Below, one piece after another: positions 13,262-60,747 of a stretch of 64,000 nucleotides of DNA. Numbering within the stretch: the stretch's first letter is position 1; every line of letters begins with the position of its first letter. Under the pieces are notes generated by a model. It was not told where the DNA came from. It was given only the letters and a program-made list of their open reading frames with translations, and did no database searches. The position numbers and the translations under genes are program-made. The stretch spans positions 75,415 through 139,414 of the forward strand of contig CAWIGO010000007.1 of the NCBI GenBank assembly GCA_963835625.1. The letters are read 5' to 3'. Source of the DNA: an uncultured Verrucomicrobiae bacterium (GTDB taxonomy: Bacteria; Verrucomicrobiota; Verrucomicrobiia; Limisphaerales; UBA11358).

Positions 13262-13346
13262 AGAATGCAGAATGCAGAATGCAGAATGGAATTCCCGTAC
13301 TGCGCGGTGAAAAATTTCTTCATTCTTCATTCTGCCTTCTGCCTTT
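13259..13346 (+). repeat. heptamer hairpin: (GAATGCA)x3 tract paired with a downstream TTCATTC/TGCCTTC tract
   Basis: The left arm is aaGAATGCAGAATGCAGAATGCAGAATGg (13261-13289). The right arm is TTCTTCATTCTTCATTCTGCCTTCTGCCTT (13317-13346). By hand alignment they pair over about 24 positions with a few mismatches. It lies between cdsA and dxr. Confidence 0.85.
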
Positions 13347-15976: not shown

Positions 15977-17767
15977 ATGCGCTACTGCGAATCCCCGTTT
16001 TTTTACCACCGGCGAAAAACCCGTGGAATTGTCATCGGTGATCCCAAGAACGGCGGTGTCATCATCGGTGGCGATCATCCGGTCGTCATGCAGTCCATGA
16101 TTACGTGCGACACGATGGACACCGCCGAGTGCGTGAAGCAAACGCTCGACCTCGTCGCCGTCGGCTGCCAAATCGTCCGCATCACCGCGCCAACCGTGAA
16201 GGACGCGGCGAATCTGCAGAGCATTGTCGCCGAGCTTCGCAGGCGCGGCTGTAACGTACCAATCGTTGCCGACATCCATTTCAAGCCCGAAGCCGCCATG
16301 GAAGCGGTGAAGTGGGTCGAAGTCGTGCGTGTCAATCCGGGCAACTACGCCGATTCCAAGAAATTCGCAATCAAGGAATACAGCGATGAACAATACGCCG
16401 CCGAGTTGAAGCGCATTGAGGAAAAATTCACGCCTCTGGTCATCGAGTGCAAACGATTGAAGCGCGCGTTGCGCATCGGCACCAACCACGGCTCGCTTTC
16501 CGACCGCATCATGAACCGTTACGGCGATACGCCGCTCGGCATGGTCGAGAGCGCGTTGGAATTCGCCCGCATCTGCCGCAAGCACGACTTCCATAACTTC
16601 AAGTTCTCGATGAAAGCGAGCAATCCCAAGGTGATGATCGAATGTTATCGGCTGCTCGTCGCGCGTCTGAACGAACTTGGCGCGGACTGGAATTATCCGA
16701 TTCATCTCGGTGTGACCGAGGCGGGCGGGGGCGAGGACGGGCGGATCAAGTCCGCTATCGGCATCGGCTCCCTGCTGTGCGACGGTCTGGGCGACACGAT
16801 TCGGGTTTCGCTCACGGAAGATTCACCGCGCGAAATCGAGGTCTGCCGCGATTTGCTGGCACAAATACCCGCATTGTCGAATTCAGAATTCAGGATTCGG
16901 GATTCAGAATTTCCATTCGACCCCTTCCGCTTTGAGCGTCGAAAAACGCCGGAAGTTTCTCTGAACGAAAATTTCAAATGCGGCGGCGAACAACTCATCC
17001 GCGTCGTCGTTGCCCGCGCCACGTGGGACAAGGTTGCCTCGAAGATTCGCCCGAAGGACGACGTGAAACCGGAGGCAGTCTATGAAGACTTGAATGTCGC
17101 GGAACTCGACCCAACAAAAGATTTCGAAATTAACCCCGACTCTGCGTCGGGGCTCGTCACCGTCAAAGACGGTGTCTCGCTGCCTGTGATTACTGCTTTT
17201 CGTCTGCTCGCTGCGAAGCTAAAACGCCTTGGCCGGAACAATCCCATTCTGCTCAAGGATTGCCTCAACTTTGAGCCGGCGCCGCTGGAGCCGAAGATTG
17301 CCCTGTTGCGGACATCGGTCGTCATCGGTTCGCTGCTGGCGGACGGCATCGGCGATGCGATTTTGATTCGCGTGGAATCCGGCGGAGGACAATCACTGCG
17401 GCTGACTTACAACATTTTGCAGGCAGCGGGCTGTCGTTCGTTCAAGACCGATTATGTCGCGTGCCCGTCGTGCGGACGGACACTGTTCAACCTGCAGACC
17501 GTGACGGCGCGCATCAAGGCGCGCACGGAGCATCTCAAGGGCGTTAAAATCGCCATCATGGGCTGCATCGTGAATGGCCCGGGCGAAATGGCCGACGCGG
17601 ATTTCGGCTACGTGGGCGGCGCGCCCGGCAAGATCAACCTCTACGTTGGAAAAACGCCGATCAAATTCAACATCCCCGAAGCCGAAGCCGTGGAACGCCT
17701 TGTGGATTTGATTCGCGAACACGGGAAATGGGTTGAGCCGGAAGCTAAAGTTGAATCACTAAAATAG
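15977..17767 (+). CDS. ispG: 4-hydroxy-3-methylbut-2-enyl-diphosphate synthase, long form with an insertion domain
   Basis: Has the N-terminal TIM-barrel part (VRITAPTVKDAANL, VADIHF, VRVNPGN) and the C-terminal 4Fe-4S part (YVACPSCGRTLFNL...IMGCIVNGPGEMADADFGYVG). The ATG at 15977 lies 5 nt after the rseP stop. Confidence 0.93.
   Translation: MRYCESPFFYHRRKTRGIVIGDPKNGGVIIGGDHPVVMQSMITCDTMDTAECVKQTLDLVAVGCQIVRITAPTVKDAANLQSIVAELRRRGCNVPIVADIHFKPEAAMEAVKWVEVVRVNPGNYADSKKFAIKEYSDEQYAAELKRIEEKFTPLVIECKRLKRALRIGTNHGSLSDRIMNRYGDTPLGMVESALEFARICRKHDFHNFKFSMKASNPKVMIECYRLLVARLNELGADWNYPIHLGVTEAGGGEDGRIKSAIGIGSLLCDGLGDTIRVSLTEDSPREIEVCRDLLAQIPALSNSEFRIRDSEFPFDPFRFERRKTPEVSLNENFKCGGEQLIRVVVARATWDKVASKIRPKDDVKPEAVYEDLNVAELDPTKDFEINPDSASGLVTVKDGVSLPVITAFRLLAAKLKRLGRNNPILLKDCLNFEPAPLEPKIALLRTSVVIGSLLADGIGDAILIRVESGGGQSLRLTYNILQAAGCRSFKTDYVACPSCGRTLFNLQTVTARIKARTEHLKGVKIAIMGCIVNGPGEMADADFGYVGGAPGKINLYVGKTPIKFNIPEAEAVERLVDLIREHGKWVEPEAKVESLK
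16879..16913 (+). repeat. five tandem heptamers (GAATTCA GAATTCA GGATTCG GGATTCA GAATTTC) inside ispG
   Basis: Read directly from the sequence. The units are built on the GAATTC palindrome, so the tract is self-complementary. It is translated in-frame as SNSEFRIRDSEFP. Confidence 0.9.
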
Positions 17768-21756: not shown

Positions 21757-23490
21757 ATGAAATTTCACTGGTCGCTCGCGCCACCGCAACCTCTGCTCGC
21801 CGGTCAACTGGCCGCGCAACTCAAAATCCCGCCGCTGCTTGCCCAATGCCTGCTGAATCGCGTCCCGCAGATGGCGGGAGAGCCGGTTGCCATCCGGGAT
21901 TTTTTGCAGCCGCGCCTGAAAAATCTCGCCGACCCGTTTTTGCTGCCGAACATGAACGCCGCCGTCGGGCGATTGCTTCATGCTCGCGGGCAAAACGAAC
22001 CACTCGTGATTTTTGGCGATTACGATACGGACGGCGTCACTTCCACTGCGCTGCTCGTTGAAGTTTTGCGCACGCTTGGCTGGAAGGTGGATTTTTATTT
22101 ACCGAACCGCATGGACGAAGGCTACGGCTTGAGTCAGGACGGCGTCGAAAATTGCCTCAAAAAATTTCCTGTAACACTCCTGCTGGCCGTGGACTGTGGT
22201 TCCACCGCCGTTGGAACCATTTCATGGCTGCGCAAACGCGGCGTGGATGTGATTGTTCTCGATCATCATCAAATTTCCTCGCCCGCGCCGGAGGCCGTTG
22301 CGCTGGTCAATCCACAACTCTCAACTTTCAACTCTCAACCATCAACCGTTTTTGCCGAACTCTGCTCCGTTGGTCTCGCTTTCAAACTCGCGCACGCCCT
22401 GGTCAAACGCGGACGCGAAATAAATCTGCCCGGCGCGGCGGAATTCGATTTACGCCCGCTGCTCGATTTGGTCGCGCTGGGCACCATCGCCGACCTCGTG
22501 CCGCTCATCGGCGAAAACCGCATTCTTGTTTCCGCCGGTTTGCAGCGGCTGAACACGACAAAACGGCCTGGTTTGATTGAGCTCAAACGGGTCGCGCAGT
22601 GCCCGCAAATACTCGGCACTTACGAAGTCGGTTTTCAACTGGCACCACGCTTGAACGCCGCCGGTCGGCTCGAATCAGCCGAGGAATCGTTGCGCCTGCT
22701 CCTGGCGCGCGATCTGGCCGAAGCGATGCCCATCGCCCAAAATCTGGATTCGCGCAATCGCGAACGCCAAAAAATCGAGCGTGACATCGTCGAGGAAGTT
22801 GTCGGCATGGTACGCGCGAAGTTTGATCCGGAAAAAGACTTCGTCATCGTCGAAGGACAATTGCTCTGGCACATCGGTGTTGTCGGCATCGTCGCGTCGC
22901 GTGTGTTGCAGGAGTTTTACCGGCCCACCATCATCATCGGTGGCGAGGGTGACGAATGGCGTGGTTCGGGACGCAGCATCGCGGGTTTCGATCTGGCCGC
23001 CGCGTTGCGCGAATGCGACGATTTGCTCGTGCGACACGGTGGGCACGCAATGGCCGCGGGCTTGAGCATTCATCCGGACAAAATTGACGCGCTGCGGGAG
23101 CGATTGAATGAATTGGCGCGCCGCGCATTGAAACTGGAGGATTTGCAACCGTCATTGCGCCTCGATGCGGAAGTCGGCCTGGACGAAATGAATTTTGAAA
23201 CGCTGAACGAGCTGGCGCGTTTGAAACCGACGGGGCAGGGGAATCCCGGCGTGCAATTCTGCGCGCGCAATCTCACCCACGCGCGTCCGCTCCAGCGCAT
23301 CGGCGCGGACAGGCGGCATGTCAAGATGTGGGTTACGGAAGGCGCAGCCACACTCGAGGCTGTTTGGTGGAACGGCGGTGAAGCATCCTTGCCGGTTGGA
23401 AAATTTGATCTGGCGTTCGCGCCGCAAATCAACGAGTTCAATGGCCGCCGCACGGTGCAATTGAAAGTTTTGGATTGGCGGGCGGCGTGA
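21757..23490 (+). CDS. recJ: single-stranded-DNA-specific exonuclease RecJ
   Basis: Has DHH motifs (IFGDYDTDGVTS, LLAVDCGS, VIVLDHH) and the DHHA1 motif (GGHAMAAGLS). Confidence 0.93.
   Translation: MKFHWSLAPPQPLLAGQLAAQLKIPPLLAQCLLNRVPQMAGEPVAIRDFLQPRLKNLADPFLLPNMNAAVGRLLHARGQNEPLVIFGDYDTDGVTSTALLVEVLRTLGWKVDFYLPNRMDEGYGLSQDGVENCLKKFPVTLLLAVDCGSTAVGTISWLRKRGVDVIVLDHHQISSPAPEAVALVNPQLSTFNSQPSTVFAELCSVGLAFKLAHALVKRGREINLPGAAEFDLRPLLDLVALGTIADLVPLIGENRILVSAGLQRLNTTKRPGLIELKRVAQCPQILGTYEVGFQLAPRLNAAGRLESAEESLRLLLARDLAEAMPIAQNLDSRNRERQKIERDIVEEVVGMVRAKFDPEKDFVIVEGQLLWHIGVVGIVASRVLQEFYRPTIIIGGEGDEWRGSGRSIAGFDLAAALRECDDLLVRHGGHAMAAGLSIHPDKIDALRERLNELARRALKLEDLQPSLRLDAEVGLDEMNFETLNELARLKPTGQGNPGVQFCARNLTHARPLQRIGADRRHVKMWVTEGAATLEAVWWNGGEASLPVGKFDLAFAPQINEFNGRRTVQLKVLDWRAA
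22314..22348 (+). repeat. five tandem TCAAC-nn heptamers inside recJ
   Basis: The units are ACAACTC TCAACTT TCAACTC TCAACCA TCAACCG, translated in-frame as PQLSTFNSQPSTV. Confidence 0.85.
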
Positions 23491-23491
23491 T

Positions 23492-23569
23492 GGTCCAGGG
23501 TCCGAAGTCTGAAGTCCAAAGCGGTCGCGAACATTTTAGACTTTGGACTTTGGACTTTGAACTTTAGAC
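23492..23569 (+). repeat. GTCCAAA/TTTGGAC heptamer hairpin between recJ and ispD
   Basis: The left arm is GTCCAGG GTCCGAA GTCTGAA GTCCAAA (23493-23520). The right arm is TTTAGAC TTTGGAC TTTGGAC TTTGAAC TTTAGAC (23535-23569). Unit-by-unit pairing uses several G:U/U:G wobbles on the + strand. Confidence 0.9.
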
Positions 23570-25620: not shown

Positions 25621-25695
25621 CGTGAATCATTGAATCGTTGCATCGGCTTGCAGCTCATGACCGTTCACGATTTAACAATTCTACGATGTAACGAC
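25621..25695 (+). repeat. AATCGTT-family imperfect inverted repeat between ctp and tsaD
   Basis: The arms are CGTGAATCATTGAATCGTTGCATCGG (25621-25646) and CCGTTCACGATTTAACAATTCTACGATGTAACGAC (25661-25695). It is the same unit family as 21681-21750 and ends at the tsaD ATG. Confidence 0.7.
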
Positions 25696-26784
25696 ATGAC
25701 AATCCTCGCCTTTGAAACTTCCTGCGATGAAACCAGCGCCGCCGTTGTGCGCGATGGTAAAATACTGTCCAGTGTTGTTTCTTCACAAATCGAATTACAC
25801 GCCGAATACGGCGGCGTGGTGCCGGAGCTGGCCGCGCGCGAACATTTGCGGAACCTGATTCCCGTCGCGCAAGCCGCGTTGCGCGAAGCAGGCGTGCAGC
25901 CGGAACAACTCGACGCCGTCGCCGCCACGCAAGGGCCGGGATTGCCGACCGCATTGCTCATCGGGTTCAAAGCCGCGCAAGCCGTCGCGTTTGCCTTGCG
26001 GAAACCATTCGTCGGCATCAACCATCACGAAGCGCATTTGTATTCGCCATGGATTTCCACTTCCAAAGTGCTGCCGGCATCCTGCCGGCAGAACAATTCA
26101 GTCTGCCAGCAGGATGCTGGCAGCATGCTTGGCTTCGCCGATTTCGGCTCCTTTCAACCCAATATCTCGCTCATTGTCAGCGGCGGCCACACGATTTTGG
26201 CTTTGGTTGAATCCGAATTAAAACATCGCGTACTGGGTTCGACGGTGGACGATGCCGGCGGCGAATGTTTTGACAAGGCCGGAAAGTTGATGGGGCTGGC
26301 GTATCCCGCCGGCCCGGAGATTGACCGGCTGGCAGAGCAGGGGAATCCCAGGGCATATGACTTCCCTCGACCGTTGCTGAATGATGCCAGCGACGACTTC
26401 AGTTTCAGCGGATTGAAAACGTCCGTGCGCTATTTTTTGCGCGACAACCCGAATTTATTGAATGACAAACGGCGGCTATGCGATTTGTGTGCGAGCGTCC
26501 AGGCGGCAATTGTGGACGTTCTCGTTGCAAAAACAATTCGTGCAGCAAAACGAAACCACGTTCGTTGTGTGACCGCGTCCGGTGGCGTGACGTGCAATCG
26601 CGCATTGCGACGTGAGTTAGCGCGAGCTTGCAAACGCGAAGGTTTCGCGCTGCGGCTTGCAGAGAAAAGTCTCTGCACTGACAATGCCGCGATGATTGGT
26701 ATTTTAGCCGAGCGAAAATTACTGGCCGACGTCGAGCCGACATCACTCGATCAGGAAATCAATCCAAGTTGGGAGTTGGCATGA
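25696..26784 (+). CDS. tsaD: tRNA N6-adenosine threonylcarbamoyltransferase TsaD
   Basis: Starts MTILAFETSCDETSAAV, then GINHHEAHL, LIVSGGHT, and ASGGV..N..LR near the C-terminus. It carries an in-frame hairpin insertion (see repeat 26071-26123). Confidence 0.92.
   Translation: MTILAFETSCDETSAAVVRDGKILSSVVSSQIELHAEYGGVVPELAAREHLRNLIPVAQAALREAGVQPEQLDAVAATQGPGLPTALLIGFKAAQAVAFALRKPFVGINHHEAHLYSPWISTSKVLPASCRQNNSVCQQDAGSMLGFADFGSFQPNISLIVSGGHTILALVESELKHRVLGSTVDDAGGECFDKAGKLMGLAYPAGPEIDRLAEQGNPRAYDFPRPLLNDASDDFSFSGLKTSVRYFLRDNPNLLNDKRRLCDLCASVQAAIVDVLVAKTIRAAKRNHVRCVTASGGVTCNRALRRELARACKREGFALRLAEKSLCTDNAAMIGILAERKLLADVEPTSLDQEINPSWELA
26071..26123. repeat. 21-nt-arm GC-rich inverted repeat inside tsaD
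   Basis: CTGCCGGCATCCTGCCGGCAG (26071-26091) pairs with CTGCCAGCAGGATGCTGGCAG (26103-26123). The reverse complement of the second arm differs from the first at 2 of 21 positions. The loop is AACAATTCAGT. It encodes LPASCRQNNSVCQQDAGS in-frame. Confidence 0.9.
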
Positions 26785-31435: not shown

Positions 31436-32299
31436 ATGAGTCCAAAGTCCAAAGCCCAAAGTCCGAAGTTATCTGATGTGCCCCCTGCCACGTGTCACAC
31501 GTCACTTATCACGCGCTATCTCACGATTTATGCCGCGCTGTGGAAAACTTCCGTGACGCGCGAAATGTCATTCAAAGGCAATTTCGTTCTCTGGATCGTG
31601 GTCGAATTGCTCTGGTTCGGGCTGCAACTCGCTTTCGTCGGTGTACTTTTCAGCCAAACCAACACCATCGGCACATGGACAGTGTGGCAGGTGGTGCTGC
31701 TCACCGGCACGAGCAATTTCATCCAGGAAATTTACCAGGCGTTCCTTCTCGTGAACTGCACGAACCTCTCGGAACTCGTCCGCACGGGTAAAATGGATTT
31801 TTTACTGCTGCTGCCGGTCAACACGCGCTTCCTCGTTTCGACGCGGCAGGTGGACCTGCCGTCATTTGCCAATGCGGCGTTCGCCGTTTGCGTCATGTTT
31901 TTTGCGGCGGGCAAACTGCATTTGCACCCAACTACCGCGCAGTTGCTCGCCTTTGCCGCCTTGTGTGTCATCGGTCTTTTGGTGCATTACTCGCTGATGT
32001 TCATGCTCGCCTCGGTGAGTTTTTGGACCGTGCGCGCGCAAGGCATCGTGTGGGGCTACTACAATCTGTTCAACATCGCGCGGATGCCGGATGAAGCGTT
32101 TCGCGGCGCGTTCAAGGCCGTGTTCACCTTCGCCCTGCCGGTGTTGCTCGTGTCCAACGTGCCCGTGCGCGTGCTGGCGGACAAATTAACTTCGCCGTCC
32201 GCATGGCTGGTGCTGCTCGGCCTGGCTGTTGTCTGGGCGCTCATCTCCGAATGGTTCTGGCGCTTCTCCATCCGCCGTTACACCAGCGCGAGCACGTGA
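31436..32299 (+). CDS. ABC-2 family transporter permease (second subunit)
   Basis: Its ATG directly follows the upstream TGA. It is a polytopic protein (REMSFKGNFVLWIVVELLWFGLQLAF...), COG3694-like. The first ~11 codons (MSPKSKAQSPK) are encoded by a GTCCAAA heptamer tract, so the true start could be further downstream. Confidence 0.65.
   Translation: MSPKSKAQSPKLSDVPPATCHTSLITRYLTIYAALWKTSVTREMSFKGNFVLWIVVELLWFGLQLAFVGVLFSQTNTIGTWTVWQVVLLTGTSNFIQEIYQAFLLVNCTNLSELVRTGKMDFLLLLPVNTRFLVSTRQVDLPSFANAAFAVCVMFFAAGKLHLHPTTAQLLAFAALCVIGLLVHYSLMFMLASVSFWTVRAQGIVWGYYNLFNIARMPDEAFRGAFKAVFTFALPVLLVSNVPVRVLADKLTSPSAWLVLLGLAVVWALISEWFWRFSIRRYTSAST
31440..31467 (+). repeat. four tandem GTCCAAA-family heptamers at the 5' end of the second ABC-2 permease ORF
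   Basis: The units are GTCCAAA GTCCAAA GCCCAAA GTCCGAA, read directly and encoding SPKSKAQSPK. The upstream TTTGGA (31424-31429) can pair with TCCAAA (31441-31446) across the stop/start junction. Confidence 0.85.
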
Positions 32300-39461: not shown

Positions 39462-41219
<1,758 letters not shown>

Positions 41220-43120: not shown

Positions 43121-44060
43121 TTACAATTTTGGTGGAATCGCTGTGGAAGAAATCCACTCACTAATCGGTTGCAGGCTTCCACATTCCGGGCAGGACGTTG
43201 CGGAATACTGAACTCCGCAGTTGGGGCAAACGCCCTGCGTTTGGAACGTGTCAAAAGGTTTCCGGCATTTGCCGCATACCCAGAATGTACCTTGCGGCGG
43301 CGGAGTTTTGCAGTTTGGACAGGCAAATCCGTCGCGGCGCGGTGCAGCGGCCACGCGGGCCAACCCGCGTGCGTGCATCAAACTGCCCCAACAATTCAGT
43401 AAAATGAAGGTGCACAAAATGCCGAGCCAGACGCCTTGGGTTGGATCACTCGAAAAAAATAGAAGCAACACTGCCATCCCGATCAGCACTGCCACTCCGA
43501 TGAATCCGATGATGCTCGCCACCAAAAGACTATTGGCGCGCCCAAACATAAACCAAAGCAGTGACCGCAAAATCTGCCCGCCATCAAGCGGATAAACCGG
43601 CAGCATGTTGAAAACGAGCAAAACGGTGTTCATGGTACCAAAGCATCTGGGCAAAAATATAGGCATTAGGTATCGTTTCCTGCCAACCGGCTGAATGCAC
43701 CAGCCACCAGATGATTGAAAGAACGGGAAAGAGAGCCACGTTTACCAACGGTCCCGCGGCGATGCTCCAAAGTTGTGCGCCGGGACGTTGCGGCGGAGAA
43801 ACGTAAGCCACGCCACCAAGCGGCCAGAGGATGATGTCACTGGTTTTTCCACCCACCTGCCGGCATGCCAGTTGATGGCCGAATTCGTGTATTAGCACAA
43901 TCAGGAACAATGCCAGACATTCCAGCACGCTCCAGATCGGGGAAGAATAACCTTCTGCCTGTTTGAGGAAATACACGACGGCAAAAAACCACGACCAGTG
44001 CAGATACACATCAATTCCGAAAAGCCGGAACAAACGAATGGAACCCTGGCGCGTTGGCAT
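43121..44060 (-). pseudogene. M50-family (site-2-protease-like) metalloprotease with a C-terminal double zinc-ribbon; frame broken at about 43631-43640
   Basis: ORF 43584-44078 has HEFGHQLACR (HExxH) and stays meaningful to ...NAYIFAQMLWY. The +1 frame (ORF 43121-43666) continues MNTVLLVFNMLPVYPLDGGQIL (the second M50 motif), more TM segments, and four CxxC pairs (CPNC, CGKC, CPNC, CPEC). The ATG at 44060 is preferred over the TTG at 44078. Confidence 0.7.
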
Positions 44061-44187
44061 TGTTGCTGAAAGATACAATAATCGTCCTCACGGAACAAGT
44101 TTTGGCGCATTTTTGTTTCCGATTCGTCACACAGCTTTAACCGAAGTGTCATTGTATTTAGTGGAAGCCCATTTTATAAAAATAGGC

Positions 44188-44591: not shown

Positions 44592-44647
44592 TTGGTGGGT
44601 GCGCCGTTGCTGCGGCGCACGGCAGTGCGGCAGCACCGCCCTACCAA
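44592..44647. repeat. nested GC-rich hairpin element TTGGTGGG...CCC(T)ACCAA with two inner hairpins
   Basis: The outer arms are TTGGTGGG (44592-44599) and CCCTACCAA (44639-44647, one bulge). The inner hairpins are GTGCGCCG-ttgctg-CGGCGCAC and GGCAGTGC-ggca-GCACCGCC (one mismatch). Confidence 0.8.
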
Positions 44648-44716: not shown

Positions 44717-47662
<2,946 letters not shown>

Positions 47663-47699: not shown

Positions 47700-50258
47700 C
47701 TAAGTTTTCTCCGGCTTCACGATGGAAACCACGAACGCATCCGGCTTGAGGTATTTCTGCGCGGCGGCCTTGATTTGTTCGAGCGTGACGGCTTCGTATT
47801 TCGCGTCGTCCAGTTCCGCGCGCCGGTAGCCGAGGCCGTAAAGTTCGTCGAGCGCGGTCAGGGACGCGAGATCGCCGAGATCCTGCCGCGCGATTTTCTT
47901 CTGGCCGATGATTTTGGCCTTCGCACGTTTGAGTTCCCCGGCGGTCAAGCCTTCGGTGCGGAGCAATTCAGCTTCCTTGAGCAATTCCGTTTCGACCTGC
48001 CCGGCCTTCGACGGTTCGGTGCCGGTATAAAAAGCAAAATAACCGGGCACGAGTCCGGCAAAATTCTGCGCTCCGACGTAATATGCCAGGCCCAATTTGT
48101 CGCGAACACGCAGAAACAGCCGCGAGCCGAGGTCGCTGCAGGATTCCTGGATCAATTCCAGCGCGTAACGGTCGTCGCTGTGCATCGTTGTTCCAGGAAA
48201 CCCGATGACGAGCACGGCCTGTTTTTTGTCACGAACTTCTTCGACGCGTTTCGGTGAATTCAAGGTAGGGCGCGTTGTCCCTAACGCGCCGCCGGACGGC
48301 TCGCTGGGGACAGCGAGCCCTACCTGTTTCCAATTCGCAAACGCCTTTTCGACGGCGGCTTTGACTCCCGTCGTTTTTACGTCGCCGTAAACGGCAAGAA
48401 CGCAATTGTTCGGCGCGGTCAATTTTTTGTGAAACAATTTCAGGTCGGAGGCCTGGAATTTCGAGACGGTTTCTTCCGTGCCGAGCGGGTCAAGGCCGTA
48501 ACCGACATTGCCGAACATTGTGCGGCACATGGCGACGCTCGCGCTTTTGAGCAAATCGTCCTTGCGCGCGCGGATGCCGGCGATTTGCACCTCGCGTTCG
48601 CGTTCCAAGTCGCCTGCGGGAAAAGTCGGGTTCAGCAAAACGTCGGCGAGCAAATCCAGGCCGGTGGCGAAATCGCTGCTCAACACCTCGACATTCACGC
48701 CAAAGCTGTTGTTGCCGCCGTAACTGTCAATGCTGCCGCCCACGGATTCGATTTCCGTGGCGACTTTCCCGGCGGTGCGGCGCTTGGTGCCCTTGAGCAG
48801 CATTTTGGCAAGCAATTGCGTGATGCCGTTGTTCCCGGCGGTCTCGGCCAGCACGCCGCCTTTGAACGCGGCTCGAAATTCGACGAATGGCAGACGATGA
48901 TCCTCCTTTACGAGCAGGCACAAACCGTTCGCCAATTCAATTTTTTGAATCGCTTGGTCACTGCTCACCTCAACGTCAGCCGAAATTTTCGGCGCGGCGC
49001 CGTCCGGCAGCAGCGCGTAAAGCGTGCGGTTTTCCGGCGTAAGATATTCGCGCGCAACACGTTGAATGTCGCCTGGCGTGACTCGTTTGACGGCGGCAAG
49101 ATAGCGCTCGGAAAAATTCAAATCATTTGCCGCCATCCAATTTGCGCCGAGGTTTTGCGCCTGGCCTTCCATCGTCTTGCGCATGGCAAGCGTGGCGGAA
49201 ATGAACTGTTTGACGGCTTTGCCCAGTTCTTCAGATGACACGGGCGACGATTTCATTTTTTCGACTTCAACGAGCATGGCGTCGCGCGCGGCGGGAAATT
49301 TATCCGCATCGGCGATGGCGCTCATGCCAAACAATCCCGAATTGCCGGGATTGTAAGTCCACGCGTCAACGTGATGCACGACGCCTTGTTTCTCACGCAC
49401 TTGCTGGAAAAGCCGCGAGCTGCGGCCGCCGCCGAGCAGCACGGCAAGCACGCCGAGAATCGGCACGTCGGGATGGCGTAGTTCGGGAATGTGCCACGCA
49501 AAATGCAGATGGCCAAGTTCAATGGGCGCTTCCTCAACGATTTCGCGCGGCGCGGTTTGTTTTGGTTCGCTGGGTAGAACCATTGGCGGAGTCGCGCGCG
49601 ATTTGGTTTTCGCATAAGACTCGCGGATTTGCGCGATCACGTCCTCGTTTTTCACATCGCCCGCGACGACATAGAAAACGTTGTTCGGCGCGTATTTTTC
49701 GCGGTAGTAGCCGTGGATGTCGTCGGGCTTCAGTTCGTTGAAAATGTCGGGATAGCCGATGACGGTGAAACGATACGGACTGCGCGTATAGGCGGTCTCG
49801 AACAGACGGCGGCTCGAACGAAGTCCAGGATCGTCCTGGCCCATGTCCATTTCGCGGCGGATGACATCCATTTCCTTCGCGAGTTCGTCCGGCGGCAGCG
49901 TCGCGTGCTGCATGATGTCGCAAAGGATGTCGATTGCCGTGTGCGCGCCGGTGTTCGGCACGTCAATGTGATAGACCGTGCGGTCGAAGCTCGTGTAGGC
50001 GTTCATGCAACCGCCGGCTTCCTGCACTTCCTGATCAATCCGGCTGCCGGGTCGCGTGGTCGTGCCCTTGAACAGCATGTGTTCGAGCACGTGCGACAGT
50101 CCCGCGCCGAGCCATTTGCCTTCGTGGATGCTGCCGGCCATGCACCACGCCTGCGCCGACACGACCGGCGCACTGTGATCCTCGCGCACGATGATGGTCA
50201 GGCCGTTTTCGAGCGTGGTGAGCGTGATACCGGGTGGAAACGAGGGGATTTCACTCAT
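47700..50258 (-). CDS. M16-family zinc peptidase, double-length (two insulinase-like halves)
   Basis: Has HVLEHMLFKGT (the HxxEH inverzincin motif) near the N-terminus. The second half repeats the M16 fold without the motif. It carries an in-frame GC-rich hairpin element (48264-48324). Confidence 0.9.
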   Translation of the reverse strand: MSEIPSFPPGITLTTLENGLTIIVREDHSAPVVSAQAWCMAGSIHEGKWLGAGLSHVLEHMLFKGTTTRPGSRIDQEVQEAGGCMNAYTSFDRTVYHIDVPNTGAHTAIDILCDIMQHATLPPDELAKEMDVIRREMDMGQDDPGLRSSRRLFETAYTRSPYRFTVIGYPDIFNELKPDDIHGYYREKYAPNNVFYVVAGDVKNEDVIAQIRESYAKTKSRATPPMVLPSEPKQTAPREIVEEAPIELGHLHFAWHIPELRHPDVPILGVLAVLLGGGRSSRLFQQVREKQGVVHHVDAWTYNPGNSGLFGMSAIADADKFPAARDAMLVEVEKMKSSPVSSEELGKAVKQFISATLAMRKTMEGQAQNLGANWMAANDLNFSERYLAAVKRVTPGDIQRVAREYLTPENRTLYALLPDGAAPKISADVEVSSDQAIQKIELANGLCLLVKEDHRLPFVEFRAAFKGGVLAETAGNNGITQLLAKMLLKGTKRRTAGKVATEIESVGGSIDSYGGNNSFGVNVEVLSSDFATGLDLLADVLLNPTFPAGDLEREREVQIAGIRARKDDLLKSASVAMCRTMFGNVGYGLDPLGTEETVSKFQASDLKLFHKKLTAPNNCVLAVYGDVKTTGVKAAVEKAFANWKQVGLAVPSEPSGGALGTTRPTLNSPKRVEEVRDKKQAVLVIGFPGTTMHSDDRYALELIQESCSDLGSRLFLRVRDKLGLAYYVGAQNFAGLVPGYFAFYTGTEPSKAGQVETELLKEAELLRTEGLTAGELKRAKAKIIGQKKIARQDLGDLASLTALDELYGLGYRRAELDDAKYEAVTLEQIKAAAQKYLKPDAFVVSIVKPEKT
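48264..48324. repeat. GGTAGGG...CCCTACC nested hairpin element inside the M16 peptidase gene
   Basis: The layout is GGTAGGG, then the hairpin CGCGTT-gtccct-AACGCG, then CCGCCGGACGG, then the hairpin CTCGCTG-ggga-CAGCGAG, then CCCTACC. On the sense strand it reads VGLAVPSEPSGGALGTTRPT. Confidence 0.9.
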
Positions 50259-50296: not shown

Positions 50297-50725
50297 TTAT
50301 GCACTGGTAGGCTTGGGTTCGGCAGATTCACTTGCCAGTTTGCCCTGCGGCCAAAACGGTTTGCGGAAGGCATCGGTAAAATCGTAGCCGTTCTGGAAAT
50401 CATCGCGGCTGTCCTTCTCGGTTTTGGCGAGCAGGCCGATTTCCACCATATTGAAAACGATTTCGCCGAAGTCGCGGCAATTGCGCACACCCCATTCCTC
50501 AAACACGGTCATCGTCATCGGGCCGAATTGCTGAAGCGCAAACTGCCGGATGCCGTCGAGCAATTTCTGGCCGCTGACGTGGCGGATTTGCCCTCGAGTT
50601 GCCTTGCCGACGAGCTTTTGCGTGTAGTCCAGCGCCTCGCGGACGAACGTGTAGGCATCGCGATGGTAACGCGAATCCTTCGCCAGGATTTGCTCCACGG
50701 CTTCGTCAAAATTGATTTCTTGCAT
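50297..50725 (-). CDS. conserved hypothetical protein, Minf_1886-like (Verrucomicrobia/Planctomycetes-restricted family; recalled from memory)
   Basis: The ATG at 50725 gives MQEINFDEAVEQILAKDSRYHRDAYTFVREALDYTQK...HVSGQKLLDGIRQFALQQFGPM.... The longer track start (50770) runs into the hairpin repeat at 50742-50798. Confidence 0.5.
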   Translation of the reverse strand: MQEINFDEAVEQILAKDSRYHRDAYTFVREALDYTQKLVGKATRGQIRHVSGQKLLDGIRQFALQQFGPMTMTVFEEWGVRNCRDFGEIVFNMVEIGLLAKTEKDSRDDFQNGYDFTDAFRKPFWPQGKLASESAEPKPTSA

Positions 50726-50741
50726 TTTTAAGATTTCCAAC

Positions 50742-50798
50742 TTGGTGGGGCGAGCGTCCTCGTCCCGCATTGCGGGATCGGTAGCCTCGCCCCACCAA
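50742..50798. repeat. nested hairpin element with a perfect 13-bp outer stem (TTGGTGGGGCGAG/CTCGCCCCACCAA) and a CCCGCATTGCGGG inner hairpin
   Basis: The outer arms at 50742-50754 and 50786-50798 are exact reverse complements. The inner hairpin is TCCCGC-att-GCGGGA at 50763-50777. Confidence 0.92.
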
Positions 50799-50800
50799 AA

Positions 50801-50929
50801 TTATTTTGCCTGTTGAACAATTGCCGCTGGCGGATGGGCGGTGCGATATGCCTTGACCATCCAACCTGTCAGCAACAGCCCTAAAACGATACAGAGAACC
50901 AGTTGTTCCTGTTTCGTCAGGCGATTCAC
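50801..50929 (-). CDS. possible small single-TM protein (about 42 aa, GTG start)
   Basis: Only the distal part of the 72-aa ORF looks protein-like: (V)NRLTKQEQLVLCIVLGLLLTGWMVKAYRTAHPPAAIVQQAK. The call is weak. Confidence 0.3.
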   Translation of the reverse strand: MNRLTKQEQLVLCIVLGLLLTGWMVKAYRTAHPPAAIVQQAK

Positions 50930-51000
50930 CAGAAGAAGGTAACTTAATAAGGGCGTTCCGGCAAGCGGGTGTTGCTGTGGCGGTGGTCTGTGACCGCCGC

Positions 51001-51028
51001 AAAAAATGACGGCGCTCATAGAGCGCCG
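51001..51028 (-). terminator. canonical-looking intrinsic terminator on the minus strand with no obvious upstream gene
   Basis: On the minus strand the hairpin GGCGCTC-tat-GAGCGCC (plus one further C:G pair) is followed by tcaTTTTTTg (plus-strand A-run at 51001-51006). Confidence 0.35.
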
Positions 51029-51091
51029 CCACGATGAAAACGGCTTTAATCTTGCGACGGCGGCTCAATGTTTGTTAGCCTGCGCCGCTTT

Positions 51092-51931: not shown

Positions 51932-53668
51932 ATGAAGTGGTCACAAACCCTGATTCCGACTCTCCGTGAAGCGCCGGCTGACGCGGAAATCCTTTCGCAC
52001 AAGCTCCTGCTTCGCGCCGGGCTGGTTCGCAAACTTGCCGGCGGCGTTTATACTTTTCTGCCGCTCGGCTTGCGCGCCCTGCGCAAGGTGGAACAAATCG
52101 TCCGTGAGGAAATGGACCGTGCGGGCGCGCTTGAACTGCTCATGCCCGCGCTCCAGCCGCCGGAAATCTGGCAGCAAAGCGGCCGTTACGAAACTGCACG
52201 CAATGTTTTGTTCAAGGTGAAAGACAGCGCCGGCCGCGAATGGGTTCTAAGCCCGACGGCTGAAGAGGTCATCACCTTGCTGGCCGCCGCCGAGATCAAT
52301 TCCTATCGGCAATTGCCGAAAAATTTTTATCAAATCAGCGTCAAGTTCCGCGACGAAATTCGCCCGCGTTTTGGGCTGATGCGCGCGCGAGAATTTATCA
52401 TGAAGGACGCGTACAGCTTTGACGTGAGTGATGAGGCGGCGCAGGCCACCTATCAAAAAATGTACGAAGCTTACTCGCGCATTTTCACGCGGTGCGGGCT
52501 GAAAACGTTTCCCGTTGAGGCCGACACCGGCGTCATCGGCGGCAAATTCTCGCACGAATTCATGGTGCCCGCCGAGACCGGCGAGGATGAGGTTGTTTAT
52601 TGTGAGGGTTGTGGTTACGCGGCGAACATCGAAAAGGCGACGAGTGGTGTGCCAGAGTCCAAAGTCCAAAGTCCAAAGTCCAAGGTCGAAAAGTTTGCCA
52701 CACCGGGTGTGACAACCATCGAAGCGCTTGCAAAAGCACCTTACAACGTTCCCGCCGAATGCCAAATCAAGACACTCGTTTATATCGTCGAAAGCAAACC
52801 TGCGCTGATTTTGCTTCGTGGTGATGATCAATTAAACGAAGCCAAGCTTGCGGGCGCGCTCGGCACGCCGACGTTTCGCTCGGCGACGCCGGAGGAAATT
52901 AGTAATGCGATGGGCGCGCATCCGGGCAGTTTGGGCGCAGTTACGAGTACTTTAAAAAAGTCGGACATTCCGATTTACGCCGACGAACATTTGCGGGGCG
53001 CAAATGGCATGACAACGGGCGCAAACGAAGATGGTTTCCACCTCCGCAACGTTTCCATCGAACGCGACATCAAAGTGACGCAGTGGTTTGATTTGCGCGT
53101 CGTGCAAACGGGCGAACCATGCGCGAAATGTCCCGATAAATCGGGACTGAAAATCCGCCGTGCGATAGAAGTCGGCCACGTGTTCAAGCTCGGCACGAAA
53201 TACAGCGAGAAATTGGGTGCAACATTTTTGGACGAATCCGGCGCGCGCAAGCCCGCCGTCATGGGCTGCTATGGCATCGGTGTCACGCGGACATTGCAGG
53301 CGGTCGTCGAGCAATGCAATGACAAGGACGGCATCATCTGGCCGGCCAGTGTCGCGCCCTACACGGTTTGCATCACGCCATTGAACGTTGCGCCGGACAG
53401 TCAGGCAATGAAACTGGCGGAGAAAATCCACGATGAACTCACCACGCGCGGCGTGGATGTGATACTGGACGACCGCGATGAACGTCCCGGCGTGAAATTC
53501 AAAGATTCCGAACTAGTCGGCTTTCCCATTCGCATCGGCATTGGTGAAAAATCACTGGCGAAGGGCGAAGTGGAAATCAAACCGCGCGGCGGTTCGTTGC
53601 AATCCGTGAAAGCCGGCAGCGCGGTGGAAGCGGTGATGAAATTACTCGGCGAAAACAGCCGGGGTTAA
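51932..53668 (+). CDS. proS: proline--tRNA ligase (bacterial type with an editing insertion)
   Basis: Starts MKWSQTLIPTLRE, then FRDEIRPRFGLMRAREFIMKDAYSF, SHEF, and GCYGIGVTR. It carries a GTCCAAA heptamer tract encoded as SKVQSPKSKV. Confidence 0.95.
   Translation: MKWSQTLIPTLREAPADAEILSHKLLLRAGLVRKLAGGVYTFLPLGLRALRKVEQIVREEMDRAGALELLMPALQPPEIWQQSGRYETARNVLFKVKDSAGREWVLSPTAEEVITLLAAAEINSYRQLPKNFYQISVKFRDEIRPRFGLMRAREFIMKDAYSFDVSDEAAQATYQKMYEAYSRIFTRCGLKTFPVEADTGVIGGKFSHEFMVPAETGEDEVVYCEGCGYAANIEKATSGVPESKVQSPKSKVEKFATPGVTTIEALAKAPYNVPAECQIKTLVYIVESKPALILLRGDDQLNEAKLAGALGTPTFRSATPEEISNAMGAHPGSLGAVTSTLKKSDIPIYADEHLRGANGMTTGANEDGFHLRNVSIERDIKVTQWFDLRVVQTGEPCAKCPDKSGLKIRRAIEVGHVFKLGTKYSEKLGATFLDESGARKPAVMGCYGIGVTRTLQAVVEQCNDKDGIIWPASVAPYTVCITPLNVAPDSQAMKLAEKIHDELTTRGVDVILDDRDERPGVKFKDSELVGFPIRIGIGEKSLAKGEVEIKPRGGSLQSVKAGSAVEAVMKLLGENSRG
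52657..52691 (+). repeat. five tandem GTCCAAA-family heptamers inside proS
   Basis: The units are GTCCAAA x3, GTCCAAG and GTCGAAA. The tract is flanked by GGTGTG (52645) and CACACC (52703) arms and is translated as SKVQSPKSKVEK. Confidence 0.9.
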
Positions 53669-57470: not shown

Positions 57471-57965
57471 TCAGAGTTTGCTCAAGGGAAAGCGGCGGGT
57501 GATTTCACGCAACAGGCGGTTTTCTTCGCGCTTCATTTTGCATCGCGCGGTGGCGCGCAAATCATCGTGGCCAAGCAGGTGCAGAACCCCATGAACGATA
57601 TAACGCGCGGTTTCCGATTGCCAGCTCACACCAAACTTTCGTGCCTGCAAAACCGCCTCGTCCATGCACACGAAAATTTCGCCGTGCAAGGTAGGGCGCG
57701 CTCTCCGCAGCGCGCCGGACCTGGCGGCGGGCAGGGGACTGCCCGCCCTACCTTCCGTGTGGTAATCAAATGTAATCACGTCCGTTGAACCTTTGTGATG
57801 GAGAAATTTTTCGTTCAACCGTGTTATTTCCTGGACGGCAACGAGATGGATGCCAAGTTCCGCCTTTTCGATCTTCAAATCAGTGAGCAATGCAGTGGTG
57901 ATCTGTTTCAGCAAACGCCGGTTGATTTTCCGCACGCGCTGGCGGCTGGCGATGGTGACGTTCAT
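57471..57965 (-). CDS. ybeY: rRNA maturation endoribonuclease YbeY
   Basis: Has the zinc motif HGVLHLLGHDD. An in-frame 63-nt GC-rich hairpin element encodes ...GRAGSPLPAARSGALRRARPT.... Confidence 0.9.
   Translation of the reverse strand: MNVTIASRQRVRKINRRLLKQITTALLTDLKIEKAELGIHLVAVQEITRLNEKFLHHKGSTDVITFDYHTEGRAGSPLPAARSGALRRARPTLHGEIFVCMDEAVLQARKFGVSWQSETARYIVHGVLHLLGHDDLRATARCKMKREENRLLREITRRFPLSKL
57690..57752. repeat. GGTAGGG...CCCTACC nested hairpin element (63 nt) inside ybeY
   Basis: The layout is GGTAGGG, then the hairpin CGCGCT-ctccgc-AGCGCG, then CCGGACCTGGCGGC, then the hairpin GGGCAG-ggga-CTGCCC, then GCCCTACC. The architecture is the same as at 48264-48324. Confidence 0.9.
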
Positions 57966-59571: not shown

Positions 59572-60747
59572 TCATGGGAACAAACTCAAAATCGCCGCTG
59601 CCGCACGTTCGCTTGCGCCCGGACCGCCGAGCTGCGAAACGATTTCCGCCAGCCGTTTCTTGATTTGAGCGCGTCGTGATTCGTTTTGCAGAAGCTCCAG
59701 TGCGGCGTGCGAAATATTTTCCGGCGTGGCGGTATTTTGGACGAATTCGGGGAAAACTTCCTCGTTCGCCAGCAGGTTCGGCATCGTGAGTGATTTCACC
59801 GTCACAATGCGTTTGCCGATTTGATAAGTGAGCCAGGAAGTTTTATAAAGTGTCACCGTCGGCACGCCAAAAAAGGCGCACTCCATCGTCACCGTGCCGG
59901 TGGAGGCGATGGCCACGTCGGCTTCGGCCAATGCCTTGGGCAGTTCACCGACTTGAATTTCCACGTCCGGTTGAAGCATGGACAGCCTGTTCGCGATGAT
60001 TTTCAAGGCTTTATTGGGCAAAACCATTTTCACACGGCTCGCTGGCAATTTTTCTTGAATCAATTTCAATGCGCCAATCATCACCGGCAAATGCCGGCGC
60101 AATTCATCGGGGCGGCTGCCGGGCAAAAGTAAAATTGTCGGGGCTGTAGCTTCGACTTTGGACTTTCCACCCTCCGTAGCAGAGCTACTGCGGAGGACGG
60201 GTGGGCTTTGGACTTTGGACTTGTCGAATCGCCCGACCATCGGATGTCCGACAAATTCCACGCGCAACTTCGGCACCCGTTTCGCATACCAGTCTTTTTC
60301 AAAAGGGAAAATGCTCAGGAGCAAATCGTAATCCGCCGCCATTAAATTTGCCCGCCCTGGTCGCGACGCCCAAACCTGCGGCGAGACAAACTGGATGATT
60401 TTCGGGTTCCATTTCGAAAAGAGATTGTTGCGGACATATCCCTTGATTGCGTGGCCGAAGCGCAGATTGAATCCGCCGAAATCCACGCCGATGAAGGCAT
60501 CCGGCTGGCGTTCAATCGCCAGCGCAAGCAGTTGGTTGAACAACCGCCGGAACTTGAAATAATTTTTCAACACATCGGACATGCCGATGACCGAGTGCTG
60601 TGTCAGGTCAAACGCCAACTCGACTCCCGCCGCCGCCATGCGTGAACCACCCGCACCAAAGAATTTTGCGTCCGGCAACTGACTATGCAGCGCGGAAACC
60701 AATTCCGCCGCGAGCAAATCACCGCTCGCCTCACCGGCGATGAGCAT
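59572..60747 (-). CDS. lpxB: lipid-A-disaccharide synthase
   Basis: The ATG at 60747 gives MLIAGEASGDLLAAEL.... The later LLPGSR..E motif is present. The track start (GTG at 60765) is also possible. It contains a composite repeat insertion at 60151-60220. Confidence 0.9.
   Translation of the reverse strand: MLIAGEASGDLLAAELVSALHSQLPDAKFFGAGGSRMAAAGVELAFDLTQHSVIGMSDVLKNYFKFRRLFNQLLALAIERQPDAFIGVDFGGFNLRFGHAIKGYVRNNLFSKWNPKIIQFVSPQVWASRPGRANLMAADYDLLLSIFPFEKDWYAKRVPKLRVEFVGHPMVGRFDKSKVQSPPVLRSSSATEGGKSKVEATAPTILLLPGSRPDELRRHLPVMIGALKLIQEKLPASRVKMVLPNKALKIIANRLSMLQPDVEIQVGELPKALAEADVAIASTGTVTMECAFFGVPTVTLYKTSWLTYQIGKRIVTVKSLTMPNLLANEEVFPEFVQNTATPENISHAALELLQNESRRAQIKKRLAEIVSQLGGPGASERAAAAILSLFP
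60151..60220. repeat. composite insertion inside lpxB: TTTGGAC heptamers on both sides of a palindromic GC-rich core
   Basis: The left side is TTCGAC TTTGGAC TTTCCAC (60151-60170). The core is CCACCC-TCCGTAGCAGAGCTACTGCGGA-GGACGGGTGG. The right side is TTTGGAC TTTGGAC (60207-60220). On the sense strand it encodes KSKVQSPPVLRSSSATEGGKSKVE. Confidence 0.85.

Follow-up and report, generated by a model that had tools for sequence, protein, structure and literature searches.

Intragenic REPs are documented exceptions, most numerous in Opitutus terrae (PMC3733652), where GTAG REP dimers (GTAG-17 to GTAG-20) encode 20-30 amino acids inside about 70 ORFs (Di Nocera, De Gregorio and Rocco 2013, PMC3733652). 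The elements described here resemble those of O. terrae, which belongs to the same phylum, in the GTAG/GTGG tag, a GC stem of 6-9 bp, the arrangement as inverted dimers with short spacers, the location of dimers within known genes, in which they encode 15-30 residues, and the use of the TAG of the tag as a stop codon (PMC3733652). They also resemble the REPIN-RAYT systems of Pseudomonas and Enterobacteria, whose REPs pair up in inverted orientation to give one larger hairpin (Nunvar et al. 2010, PMC2817692; Bertels and Rainey 2011, PMC3116915), whose single-copy RAYT gene is flanked by its own REPs, and whose copies are inherited vertically and persist for long periods (PMC3116915, PMC2817692). 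Finally, the palindromic elements of Rickettsia (RPE) are likewise palindromes that lie in frame in genes whose proteins are functional, at surface sites that permit insertion; they differ by a CGTC tag, by the greater length of several of them, by their occurrence in Alphaproteobacteria and in that no dedicated transposase is known (PMC3733652).

Here we describe two translated REP doublets of an uncultured Verrucomicrobiae bacterium, found in a stretch of 64,000 nucleotides that was analysed as a whole and is termed "the window" below. The host genes and the parts of both elements are as follows:

47700-50258, minus strand: host gene of a two-unit M16 (pitrilysin-type) zinc peptidase, 852 aa
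48264-48324, no strand: REP doublet (REPIN-like) in the M16 peptidase gene, 61 nt, 74% GC, encoding M16 residues 645-666
48264-48290, plus strand: left REP unit of the M16 copy, GGTAGGGCGCGTTGTCCCTAACGCGCC, GTAG tag and 8-bp hairpin; model R1 41.1 bits, E 4.5e-6
48291-48297, no strand: spacer GCCGGAC of the M16 copy, 7 nt, joining the two units
48298-48324, minus strand: right REP unit of the M16 copy, read on the minus strand as GGTAGGGCTCGCTGTCCCCAGCGAGCC, 9-bp stem and TCCC loop; R1 31.7 bits, E 2.6e-4
57471-57965, minus strand: host gene ybeY (rRNA maturation RNase), 164 aa
57690-57752, no strand: sister REP doublet in ybeY, 63 nt, 81% GC, encoding YbeY residues 72-92
57690-57716, plus strand: left REP unit of the ybeY copy, GGTAGGGCGCGCTCTCCGCAGCGCGCC; R1 40.9 bits
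57726-57752, minus strand: right REP unit of the ybeY copy, read on the minus strand as GGTAGGGCGGGCAGTCCCCTGCCCGCC; R1 41.5 bits

An earlier note, drawn from this DNA alone, had described a nested hairpin element at 48264-48324 with a sister copy at 57690-57752, and the sequence is as it described. Both elements consist of two inverted 27-nt units, separated by a spacer of 7 nt (M16) or 9 nt (ybeY), and within each unit a GC-rich hairpin follows a GGTAG tag. All four units of the window carry GGTAG without change, in the place of the unpaired 5' GTAG/GTGG tag of REPs, and the stems measure 8-9 bp, within the 5-13 bp of REP stems; the inner stems of the M16 copy, given as 6 and 7 bp in the earlier note, are actually 8 and 9 bp long. 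Since the halves of the M16 copy are inverted copies of one 27-nt unit, a single long hairpin is open to it as an alternative fold. The motif pair GGTAGGG...CCCTACC with a gap of 35-60 nt occurs twice in the window versus not once in 100 shuffles. The folding energy amounts to -49.3 kcal/mol for the M16 element (z = -7.8) and to -47.1 kcal/mol for the ybeY element (z = -4.0), and at -46 to -49 kcal/mol the element hairpins rank among the most stable of the window. The two copies had been said to share a plus-strand orientation, which holds in that the GCGCG-type unit lies left on the plus strand in both, but orientation is weakly defined for a near-palindrome.

The covariance model R1, built from units of other genomes only, with none from the window, detects exactly the four units described, at 31.7-41.5 bits, with no other strong match in the window, and its matches fall as plus/minus pairs, which is the inverted-dimer arrangement of a REPIN. 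An Rfam search of the window brought one tRNA alone to the gathering score and nothing at the element. A pattern scan of species genomes yielded at least 120 loci; among those listed, 93 of the 120 are Verrucomicrobiota by title and 6 further loci come from other PVC groups, and several loci among the matches listed carry 2-4 copies. All 131 listed elements have GGTAGGGCG, a stem, a TCC-type loop, the complementary stem and CGCC, with GGTAG invariant throughout, and a unit identical to the right unit of ybeY is present in loci of other genomes. Four of the eight stem pairs change on both sides (127 cells), a level reached by none of 500 shuffles; the 97% of cells that are paired in the 73 units from other genomes are an inflated figure, the alignment having been pre-filtered for at least 7 paired bases.

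Cognate RAYT genes, flanked by GGTAG units of the family, are found in other genomes of the Verrucomicrobiota/PVC (L166, L159, L157 and L092). These genes have HUH and Tyr motifs, and in L166 and L092 their stop codon comes from the TAG within the tag. Pfam Y1_Tnp scores the flanking transposase genes weakly (18.8-25.4 bits), and their identity was settled by the NCBIfam RAYT model REP_Tyr_transpos (NF047646; cut-off 80), which gives 84.7, 82.2, 76.6 and 77.7 bits, respectively. A tblastn search with nine published RAYT/Y1 sequences found no RAYT in the 64-kb window. The earlier note had classed the element as a REP/MITE-type repeat and had named a total of only two copies as an argument against itself. 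That argument does not apply, as further copies exist in other genomes, and the REP half of the label is borne out by the spread of the family, by its cognate RAYTs and by its intragenic copies.

The MITE half is not. A MITE in the classical sense, derived from an IS by deletion, with terminal inverted repeats, moved by a DDE transposase and leaving target-site duplications, would be short, palindromic, multi-copy and non-coding by itself, as these elements are; it is nevertheless an extremely improbable identity, because long terminal inverted repeats are lacking, no target-site duplication is found at either copy (flanks tcaa...tgtt in M16 and gcaa...ttcc in ybeY) and no consistent flank in the 131 listed copies, the units take the form of hairpins with a GTAG tag, and the genes that accompany them encode RAYTs. 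Two further candidates were rejected: an intrinsic terminator, since the sense strand after the hairpins reads TTGAATTC and TTGCACGG in place of a T-run and translation goes on, and a Rickettsia palindromic element, since the termini are GGTAG/CTACC and not a CGTC tag.

Apart from the two strict doublets, the 64 kb of the window contain three variants:

44594-44645, no strand: diverged relative GGTGGG...CCCTACC, intergenic between a response-regulator gene and aconitase; right unit R1 17.9 bits
50744-50796, no strand: GTGG-tagged doublet GGTGGGG...CCCCACC, in a stretch without a Pfam-supported gene
50976-51031, no strand: second GTGG-tagged doublet GTGGCGG...CCGCCAC, in the same Pfam-less stretch

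The 120-aa ORF at 50706-51068 that spans the latter two is without Pfam support; it is therefore treated as probably non-coding and adds no further intragenic case. TsaD, also encoded in the window, carries another REP family. Relatives contain 11 units of the strict family in 852 kb, and given this sparseness, current mobility in the source lineage is doubtful. Whereas REPINs of Pseudomonas and Enterobacteria are overwhelmingly extragenic and high-copy, a large share of the present elements is translated, and copies of the strict family are few in the source lineage.

Unlike the extragenic location that characterizes REPs, both copies reside within coding sequence. In-frame read-through had been proposed in the earlier note, and both copies indeed lie inside long minus-strand ORFs with the translations given there: QVGLAVPSEPSGGALGTTRPTL forms residues 645-666 of the M16 peptidase and GRAGSPLPAARSGALRRARPT residues 72-92 of YbeY. 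The M16 site is the linker of the second M16 unit, joining its N domain to its C domain, and it aligns with the interdomain linker of structure 3HDI; an exact-sequence database look-up of the window's M16 protein gave no match. The YbeY element sits between beta strands 63-67 and 92-100, in a loop that varies in length among solved YbeY structures, and in the AlphaFold model pLDDT falls below 50 at residues 71-88 only. The element is translated as a floppy loop, predicted to be disordered in YbeY. The claim that the two copies are decoded in different frames holds on the sense strand at the 5' end (G GTA GGG versus GGT AGG G) but not at the 3' end, where a length difference of 2 nt between the copies brings both to CGC CCT ACC TTG. 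The TAG in GGTAGGG always closes one frame per strand, and hence the two frames seen are the two possible ones.

Sorting the family into intergenic and coding copies, as had been suggested, places about 15-28% of the copies elsewhere inside real genes: among the 131 listed copies, 20 lie at least 80 codons deep in ORFs and 37 at least 50 codons. Pfam domains occur on both sides of the element in HrpA, MurC/MurB, NuoG, GlnRS and a kinase-FGE protein, and in other genes the units are read in differing frames or on either strand (GRAGSPLPA, VGRVTPCAP, GAHGVTRPT). The idea of an adaptation to survive inside genes drew no support from its own check for stop-codon depletion: 3.15 of six frames are open per element, compared with 2.93 in mononucleotide and 3.29 in dinucleotide shuffles, and frame openness follows from the GC content of 72%. 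Intragenic lengths, taken from GGTAGGG through CCCTACC, show no excess of multiples of 3 (10/37), and the insertion boundaries are accordingly not sharply defined.

The inserted peptide might itself be selected as a functional loop or linker motif, with the hairpin being incidental, and among the 120 closest YbeY orthologues about 69 do share a GRAGSPLPA..RPT-type peptide. We regard this as very improbable, since substitutions in the element show no preference for third-codon positions, the unit is read in other frames and strands elsewhere, unrelated peptides occupy the same site in orthologues and the loop is predicted to be disordered.

Comparison of orthologues indicates what is preserved instead. 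The M16 element is identical to that of the window at 61/61 positions in L205, 60/61 in L204 and 59/61 in L207, lineages whose M16 genes are 81-82% identical in DNA to the window gene (binomial P for the element's excess 5e-6 to 3e-4). This identity stops at the element ends, with mismatches against L205 at 5/21 positions of the left flank and 9/24 of the right flank. In ybeY, third-codon identity amounts to 81-95% in the element versus 54-66% in the flanks, and orthologous copies show compensatory pairs. The sharp edges of the M16 copy, the conserved third-codon positions and compensatory changes of ybeY and the stability of the hairpins would all fit intragenic doublets that are functional themselves and under purifying selection, be it as mRNA hairpins that pause ribosomes at the edge of a domain or govern mRNA processing or stability, or as a DNA site for a host factor. 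Such a function, which would complement the REPIN identity and not replace it, is a tentative possibility: sister lineages at 87-89% protein identity hold arrays of heptamers without any hairpin instead, the M16 copy of L206 is decayed and most ybeY pairs show no excess conservation of the element.

Short-tract gene conversion or recombination, with other genomic copies or with related strains, could produce the same near-identity in place of selection. The L201 ybeY is a mosaic, 75% identical to the window overall, yet 62/63 in the element with identical adjacent flanks, while the M16 gene on the same contig is 93% identical, and templates could exist given that REP families are multi-copy. 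For the M16 copy, however, identity ends exactly at the element, as the flank mismatches to L205 show, and no second copy of the two M16 units was seen in the window or in the 852 kb of relatives; L195 offers a near match to one unit. Recombination is a rather unlikely substitute for selection, although some of the identity between lineages may stem from it, as in the mosaic ybeY of L201.

Both protein loops hold other REPIN families or heptamer arrays in orthologues. In the M16 sister lineages at 87-89% protein identity, the whole cassette has been swapped for the heptamer arrays, and a neighbour-joining tree of M16 orthologues shows the types of occupant interleaved; owing to the poor resolution among sequences of about 80% identity, we rely on the close clade at 85-94% identity only. 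The empty site that was to be sought is not seen in simple form among M16 orthologues, since the interdomain linker is exchanged as a whole, like a cassette, and no unoccupied orthologue displays an insertion event. Distant ybeY relatives have a short loop without any element. Heptamer arrays are also present in other genes of the window. Tandem 7-nt units are known from the cyanobacterial STRR heptanucleotide repeats, which, like the arrays here, comprise many families and which are mainly intergenic; the likeness concerns the arrays in orthologue loops and other window genes only and is unrelated to the REP doublet itself. It is conceivable, though we would not expect it, that the translated doublets are nucleic-acid modules, and no passive passengers, held nearly unchanged by selection while the host gene diverges by about 18%, and that the loops are cassette sites at which REPIN families and heptamer arrays are swapped between close lineages.

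Taken together, it is highly probable that both elements are REPINs of a GTAG family of the Verrucomicrobiota/PVC, presumably mobilised by RAYTs, tolerated in loops, old and constrained as nucleic acid. Each is made of two inverted GTAG-tagged units (GGTAG and GGCG-stem-loop-stem-CGCC) and a short spacer, and the family extends through Verrucomicrobiota into neighbouring PVC phyla. If the REP/RAYT systems studied so far are a guide, a single-copy RAYT, an HUH/Y1 enzyme related to the TnpA of IS200/IS605, may recognise the folded single-stranded hairpin beside the GTAG tag and copy the element in trans. Intragenic copies would survive only where the frame is open and the protein tolerates about 20 extra residues rich in Gly, Ala, Pro, Arg and Ser, such as presumably the linker between the domains of M16 unit two and the beta-hairpin loop of YbeY with its predicted disordered peptide. 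Both copies are probably old and vertically inherited. Their upkeep would occur at the nucleotide level, since tags and GGCG/CGCC clamps do not vary, stem substitutions come as compensatory pairs and drift is seen in the spacer, which points to a constraint on nucleic-acid structure and not on the peptide.

Intragenic, translated REP doublets are already known as a kind, since Di Nocera et al. (2013) reported intragenic copies in O. terrae. The GTAG-18 element of that species reads VGPALAAG, with the same Val-Gly (GTAGGG-type) start as here, which hints at a link as far as the peptide alone can indicate (PMC3733652). In contrast, the stem and loop sequences differ, the peptides GRAGSPLPA, VGLAVPSEP and GAHGVTRPT are absent from the table of PMC3733652, and the hosts M16 and ybeY are absent from its gene list. 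Neither the conservation of orthologous intragenic copies at the level of nucleotides nor a succession of different occupants at a single site across many lineages is reported there. What goes beyond it, as read from sequence comparison, is an M16 copy retained at 59-61 of 61 positions between genes of about 81% identity, and the use of the same loops by other REPINs or heptamers.

REPs are extragenic by name, and Verrucomicrobiota appear to be the group in which they most often enter proteins; the window adds two essential-type enzymes, as well as TsaD with its other family. Accordingly, when genes of this phylum are annotated or its protein families aligned, inserts of low complexity (GRAGSPLPA...RPT, for instance) should be read as repeat DNA and not as protein motifs. 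An element identical at 61/61 positions within a host gene of 82% identity stands out, and if selection is responsible, intragenic REPINs would amount to a clean natural experiment on the role of REP hairpins, because the surrounding codons serve as an internal control for the neutral rate.

Two inverted GGTAGGG...CCCTACC pairs occur in the window, compared with none in 100 shuffles. The two sequences reported in the earlier note match the DNA exactly, and both elements are read through, each within a minus-strand gene:

48264-48324, in the minus-strand gene of a two-unit M16 peptidase (852 aa), residues 645-666: left unit GGTAGGGCGCGTTGTCCCTAACGCGCC, spacer GCCGGAC, right unit GGCTCGCTGGGGACAGCGAGCCCTACC
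57690-57752, in minus-strand ybeY (YbeY, 164 aa), residues 72-92: left unit GGTAGGGCGCGCTCTCCGCAGCGCGCC, spacer GGACCTGGC, right unit GGCGGGCAGGGGACTGCCCGCCCTACC

Each doublet consists of one 27-nt unit paired in inverted orientation, with the layout GGTAG, GGCG, variable stem, TCC-type loop, complementary stem and CGCC. The four stems all differ (GCGCGTT, GCTCGCTG, GCGCGCT and GCGGGCAG), and each faces its own complement; the hairpins noted earlier are present, with stems of 8 and 9 bp rather than the slightly shorter lengths first given. Both doublets fold much more stably than shuffled controls (z = -7.8 for M16 and -4.0 for ybeY) and rank within the top three 64-nt stretches of the window by fold stability. 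Since a GTAG-tagged REP dimer, or REPIN, is defined by a conserved GTAG beside a GC-rich hairpin in two facing units, the window element is a translated GTAG-REP doublet, and the earlier assignment to REP elements was right.

The most stable 64-nt fold of the window (-48.5 kcal/mol) is a third translated hairpin doublet, of a different family (TGCCGGCATCCTGCCGGCA), at 26069-26125 in tsaD (25630-26784), where it forms residues 147-166 and cuts the Pfam TsaD match in two. The same family fills the ybeY loop in two loci from other genomes, L023 and L026. The stretch between the M16 and FAA-hydrolase genes (50297-51068) contains two ORFs that match no Pfam family, together with GTGG-tagged doublets at 50744-50796 and 50976-51031; at least the 120-aa ORF, which bears both of these doublets, is unlikely to be a true gene. 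The peptidase M50 gene (43121-44078) is split into overlapping ORFs (43121-43666 and 43584-44078), while L201 and L203 carry a single gene of 296-305 aa, pointing to a frameshift, pseudogene or sequencing error in the window.

An exact pattern, GGTAGGGCG N36-60 CGCCCTACC, searched in one genome per species, matched at least 120 stretches. By title, the 120 listed comprise 93 from Verrucomicrobiota, 6 from other PVC bacteria, 17 from other taxa and 4 unnamed; the Verrucomicrobiota among them include Opitutaceae, Limisphaerales, Chthoniobacterales, Udaeobacter, Akkermansia, Prosthecobacter and Pelagicoccus. All 131 elements among the matches listed share the GGTAG-unit architecture. Among 73 distinct units, a set limited to those with 7 or more paired bases, the four inner stem pairs vary on both sides in 127 cells, a count reached by 0 of 500 shuffles and by no slid register. 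With a covariance model built from these foreign units, the four units of the window score 41.5, 41.1, 40.9 and 31.7 bits, and the next-best match there reaches 17.9 bits. The other taxa include several bins from gut co-assemblies that bear the label Bifidobacterium or Klebsiella. Bifidobacterium, Bifidobacteriaceae or Klebsiella bins with family units (L093, L094, L108, L114, L124, L160, L172 and L199) mostly carry GGTAGGGCGCGTCACTCCGTGCGCGCC, the unit of the Akkermansia locus L100, and these contigs may therefore be mis-binned. Four tandem GGTAGGG doublets with a period of about 90 nt form a BIME-like cluster in L130 (6351-6686).

Published RAYT sequences (PMC3733652 supplement) served as tblastn queries. 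In L166, L159, L157 and L092 the search found RAYT-like genes bordered immediately by GGTAGGG units; these genes contain the HUH motif (MPDH[ILV]H) and the catalytic Tyr region, and score 84.7, 82.2, 76.6 and 77.7 bits, respectively, against NCBIfam NF047646 "REP-associated tyrosine transposase" (cut-off 80 bits). The RAYT reading frames of L166 and L092 end at the TAG within GGTAGGG. No RAYT was found in the 64-kb window. In three loci of relatives, M16 has as its neighbour another RAYT-like gene (70.9 bits on NF047646):

L005, 518-1294
L008, 3930-4709
L023, 1193-1963

This gene is bordered by REP doublets of a different family (TTGGAGCGCCGG...), whose peptide (AGSETGAP) occupies the M16 linker in other orthologues, and itself seems to bear a REP-like insert (ERRLPARR..CRRPALQ).

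Copies inside genes are common: among the matches listed, 20 of 131 elements are flanked on each side by 80 or more open codons, and 37 by 50 or more. Pfam scans of ten of the longest ORFs spanning an element show that most are genuine genes whose domains lie to either side of the insert (HrpA helicase, MurC/MurB fusion, NuoG, class-I Glu/Gln tRNA synthetase, kinase-FGE protein); an FtsX permease and a DEAD helicase were likewise seen. This agrees with Di Nocera et al. 2013 (PMC3733652), who describe GTAG repeats from PVC bacteria and term O. terrae "highly enriched" in them, so that the phenomenon is already known; their table lists neither the present sub-family nor these host genes. The window doublet thus adds a member to a family, and an instance to a phenomenon, that the literature already records for Verrucomicrobia.

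The idea that the element is adapted for coding is unsupported. Elements among the matches listed have on average 3.15 open frames of six, between the values for mononucleotide (2.93) and dinucleotide (3.29) interior shuffles, and hence show no sign of stop-codon depletion. The TAG in GGTAGGG always closes one frame per strand, leaving GGT AGG and G GTA GGG as the only possible 5' frames; other copies among the matches listed use them 21 and 16 times. The M16 and ybeY copies do differ in frame at the 5' end, as had been noted, but not at the 3' end, where their last codons are alike (CGC CCT ACC TTG).

Both insertions lie in loops. The YbeY insert is flanked by strands 63-67 and 92-100; confidence in the AlphaFold model is good overall (mean pLDDT 84.5) but drops below 50 at residues 71-88. 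The same loop spans 8-18 residues in solved YbeY structures, and in more distant relatives it is short and plain (FDYASPASALQGEIF in L030, FDYSEGTKGVSGEIF in L043). The M16 site aligns to the linker joining the N and C domains of 3HDI, about 18 residues long there versus 26 in the window protein.

The M16 doublet is identical to those of L205, L204 and L207 at 61/61, 60/61 and 59/61 positions, whereas the genes share 81-82% DNA identity (binomial P = 4.6e-6, 4.9e-5 and 3.4e-4); divergence starts at once beyond the doublet, and the L206 copy is decayed (53/61). In ybeY, third-codon identity is 81-95% in the element versus 54-66% outside. Across seven orthologous copies, pairing is retained in 95% of cells, both partners differ in three pairs, one stem position is C-G, A-U or U-A, and the spacer drifts; most ybeY pairs show no excess similarity of element over gene. 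The pattern is read here as either real nucleotide-level constraint or element-limited homogenisation. The ybeY gene of the close relative L201 (1807-2301) is a recombinant mosaic, given 75% DNA identity to the window against 93% for M16 on the same contig, with a nearly identical centre that includes the element.

The occupants of these sites change among lineages. The best 120 YbeY proteins comprise about 69 loops of the GGTAGGG type, 20 of the GTAGCGCAGGC, 13 of the GGTTTGGAG and 2 of the GGAGGGCAG type, 8 short loops and 8 outside all classes; the three alternative types are hairpin doublets in DNA too. In M16, everything between TGGAAA and AAACG[CT]GTC varies: the linker holds the present doublet, REP-type peptides (VGRVTPCAP, AGILPA..RRQDAGA, PASGPAR..AGSETGAP, GTGVPPV..HTGATPVP) or heptamer arrays. 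Within the close clade the doublet is kept at 94, 91 and 85% protein identity, and relatives at 89% and 87% carry (CAGAAGT)x4.5 and (CTCAACT)x4 in its place.

Heptanucleotide tandem arrays of 3-6 copies (units such as CAACTCT, CCAAAGT, GATTTCG and GAATTCA) also occur in the window, at 16879-16911, 22315-22346, 31439-31469, 39471-39500, 40803-40835, 45306-45332, 52652-52691 and 60202-60222. In seven genes, aconitase, ProRS and LpxB among them, translation runs through the arrays in frame and yields peptides like PESKVQSPKSKVEK and QLSTFNSQPST; the M16 linker of orthologues is filled with similar heptamers, CTCAACT being one. A keyword search retrieved no papers on in-frame heptamer arrays in Verrucomicrobia. 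Heptamer arrays also form the arms of intergenic inverted repeats at 1494-1578, 13257-13345 and 23493-23569, e.g., (AATGCAG)n ... (TTCTGCC/TTCTTCA)n; these fold into long hairpins, and the genes on either side share a strand.

Of these results, the contrast in conservation and the cassette-like exchange of occupants at fixed loops merit follow-up.
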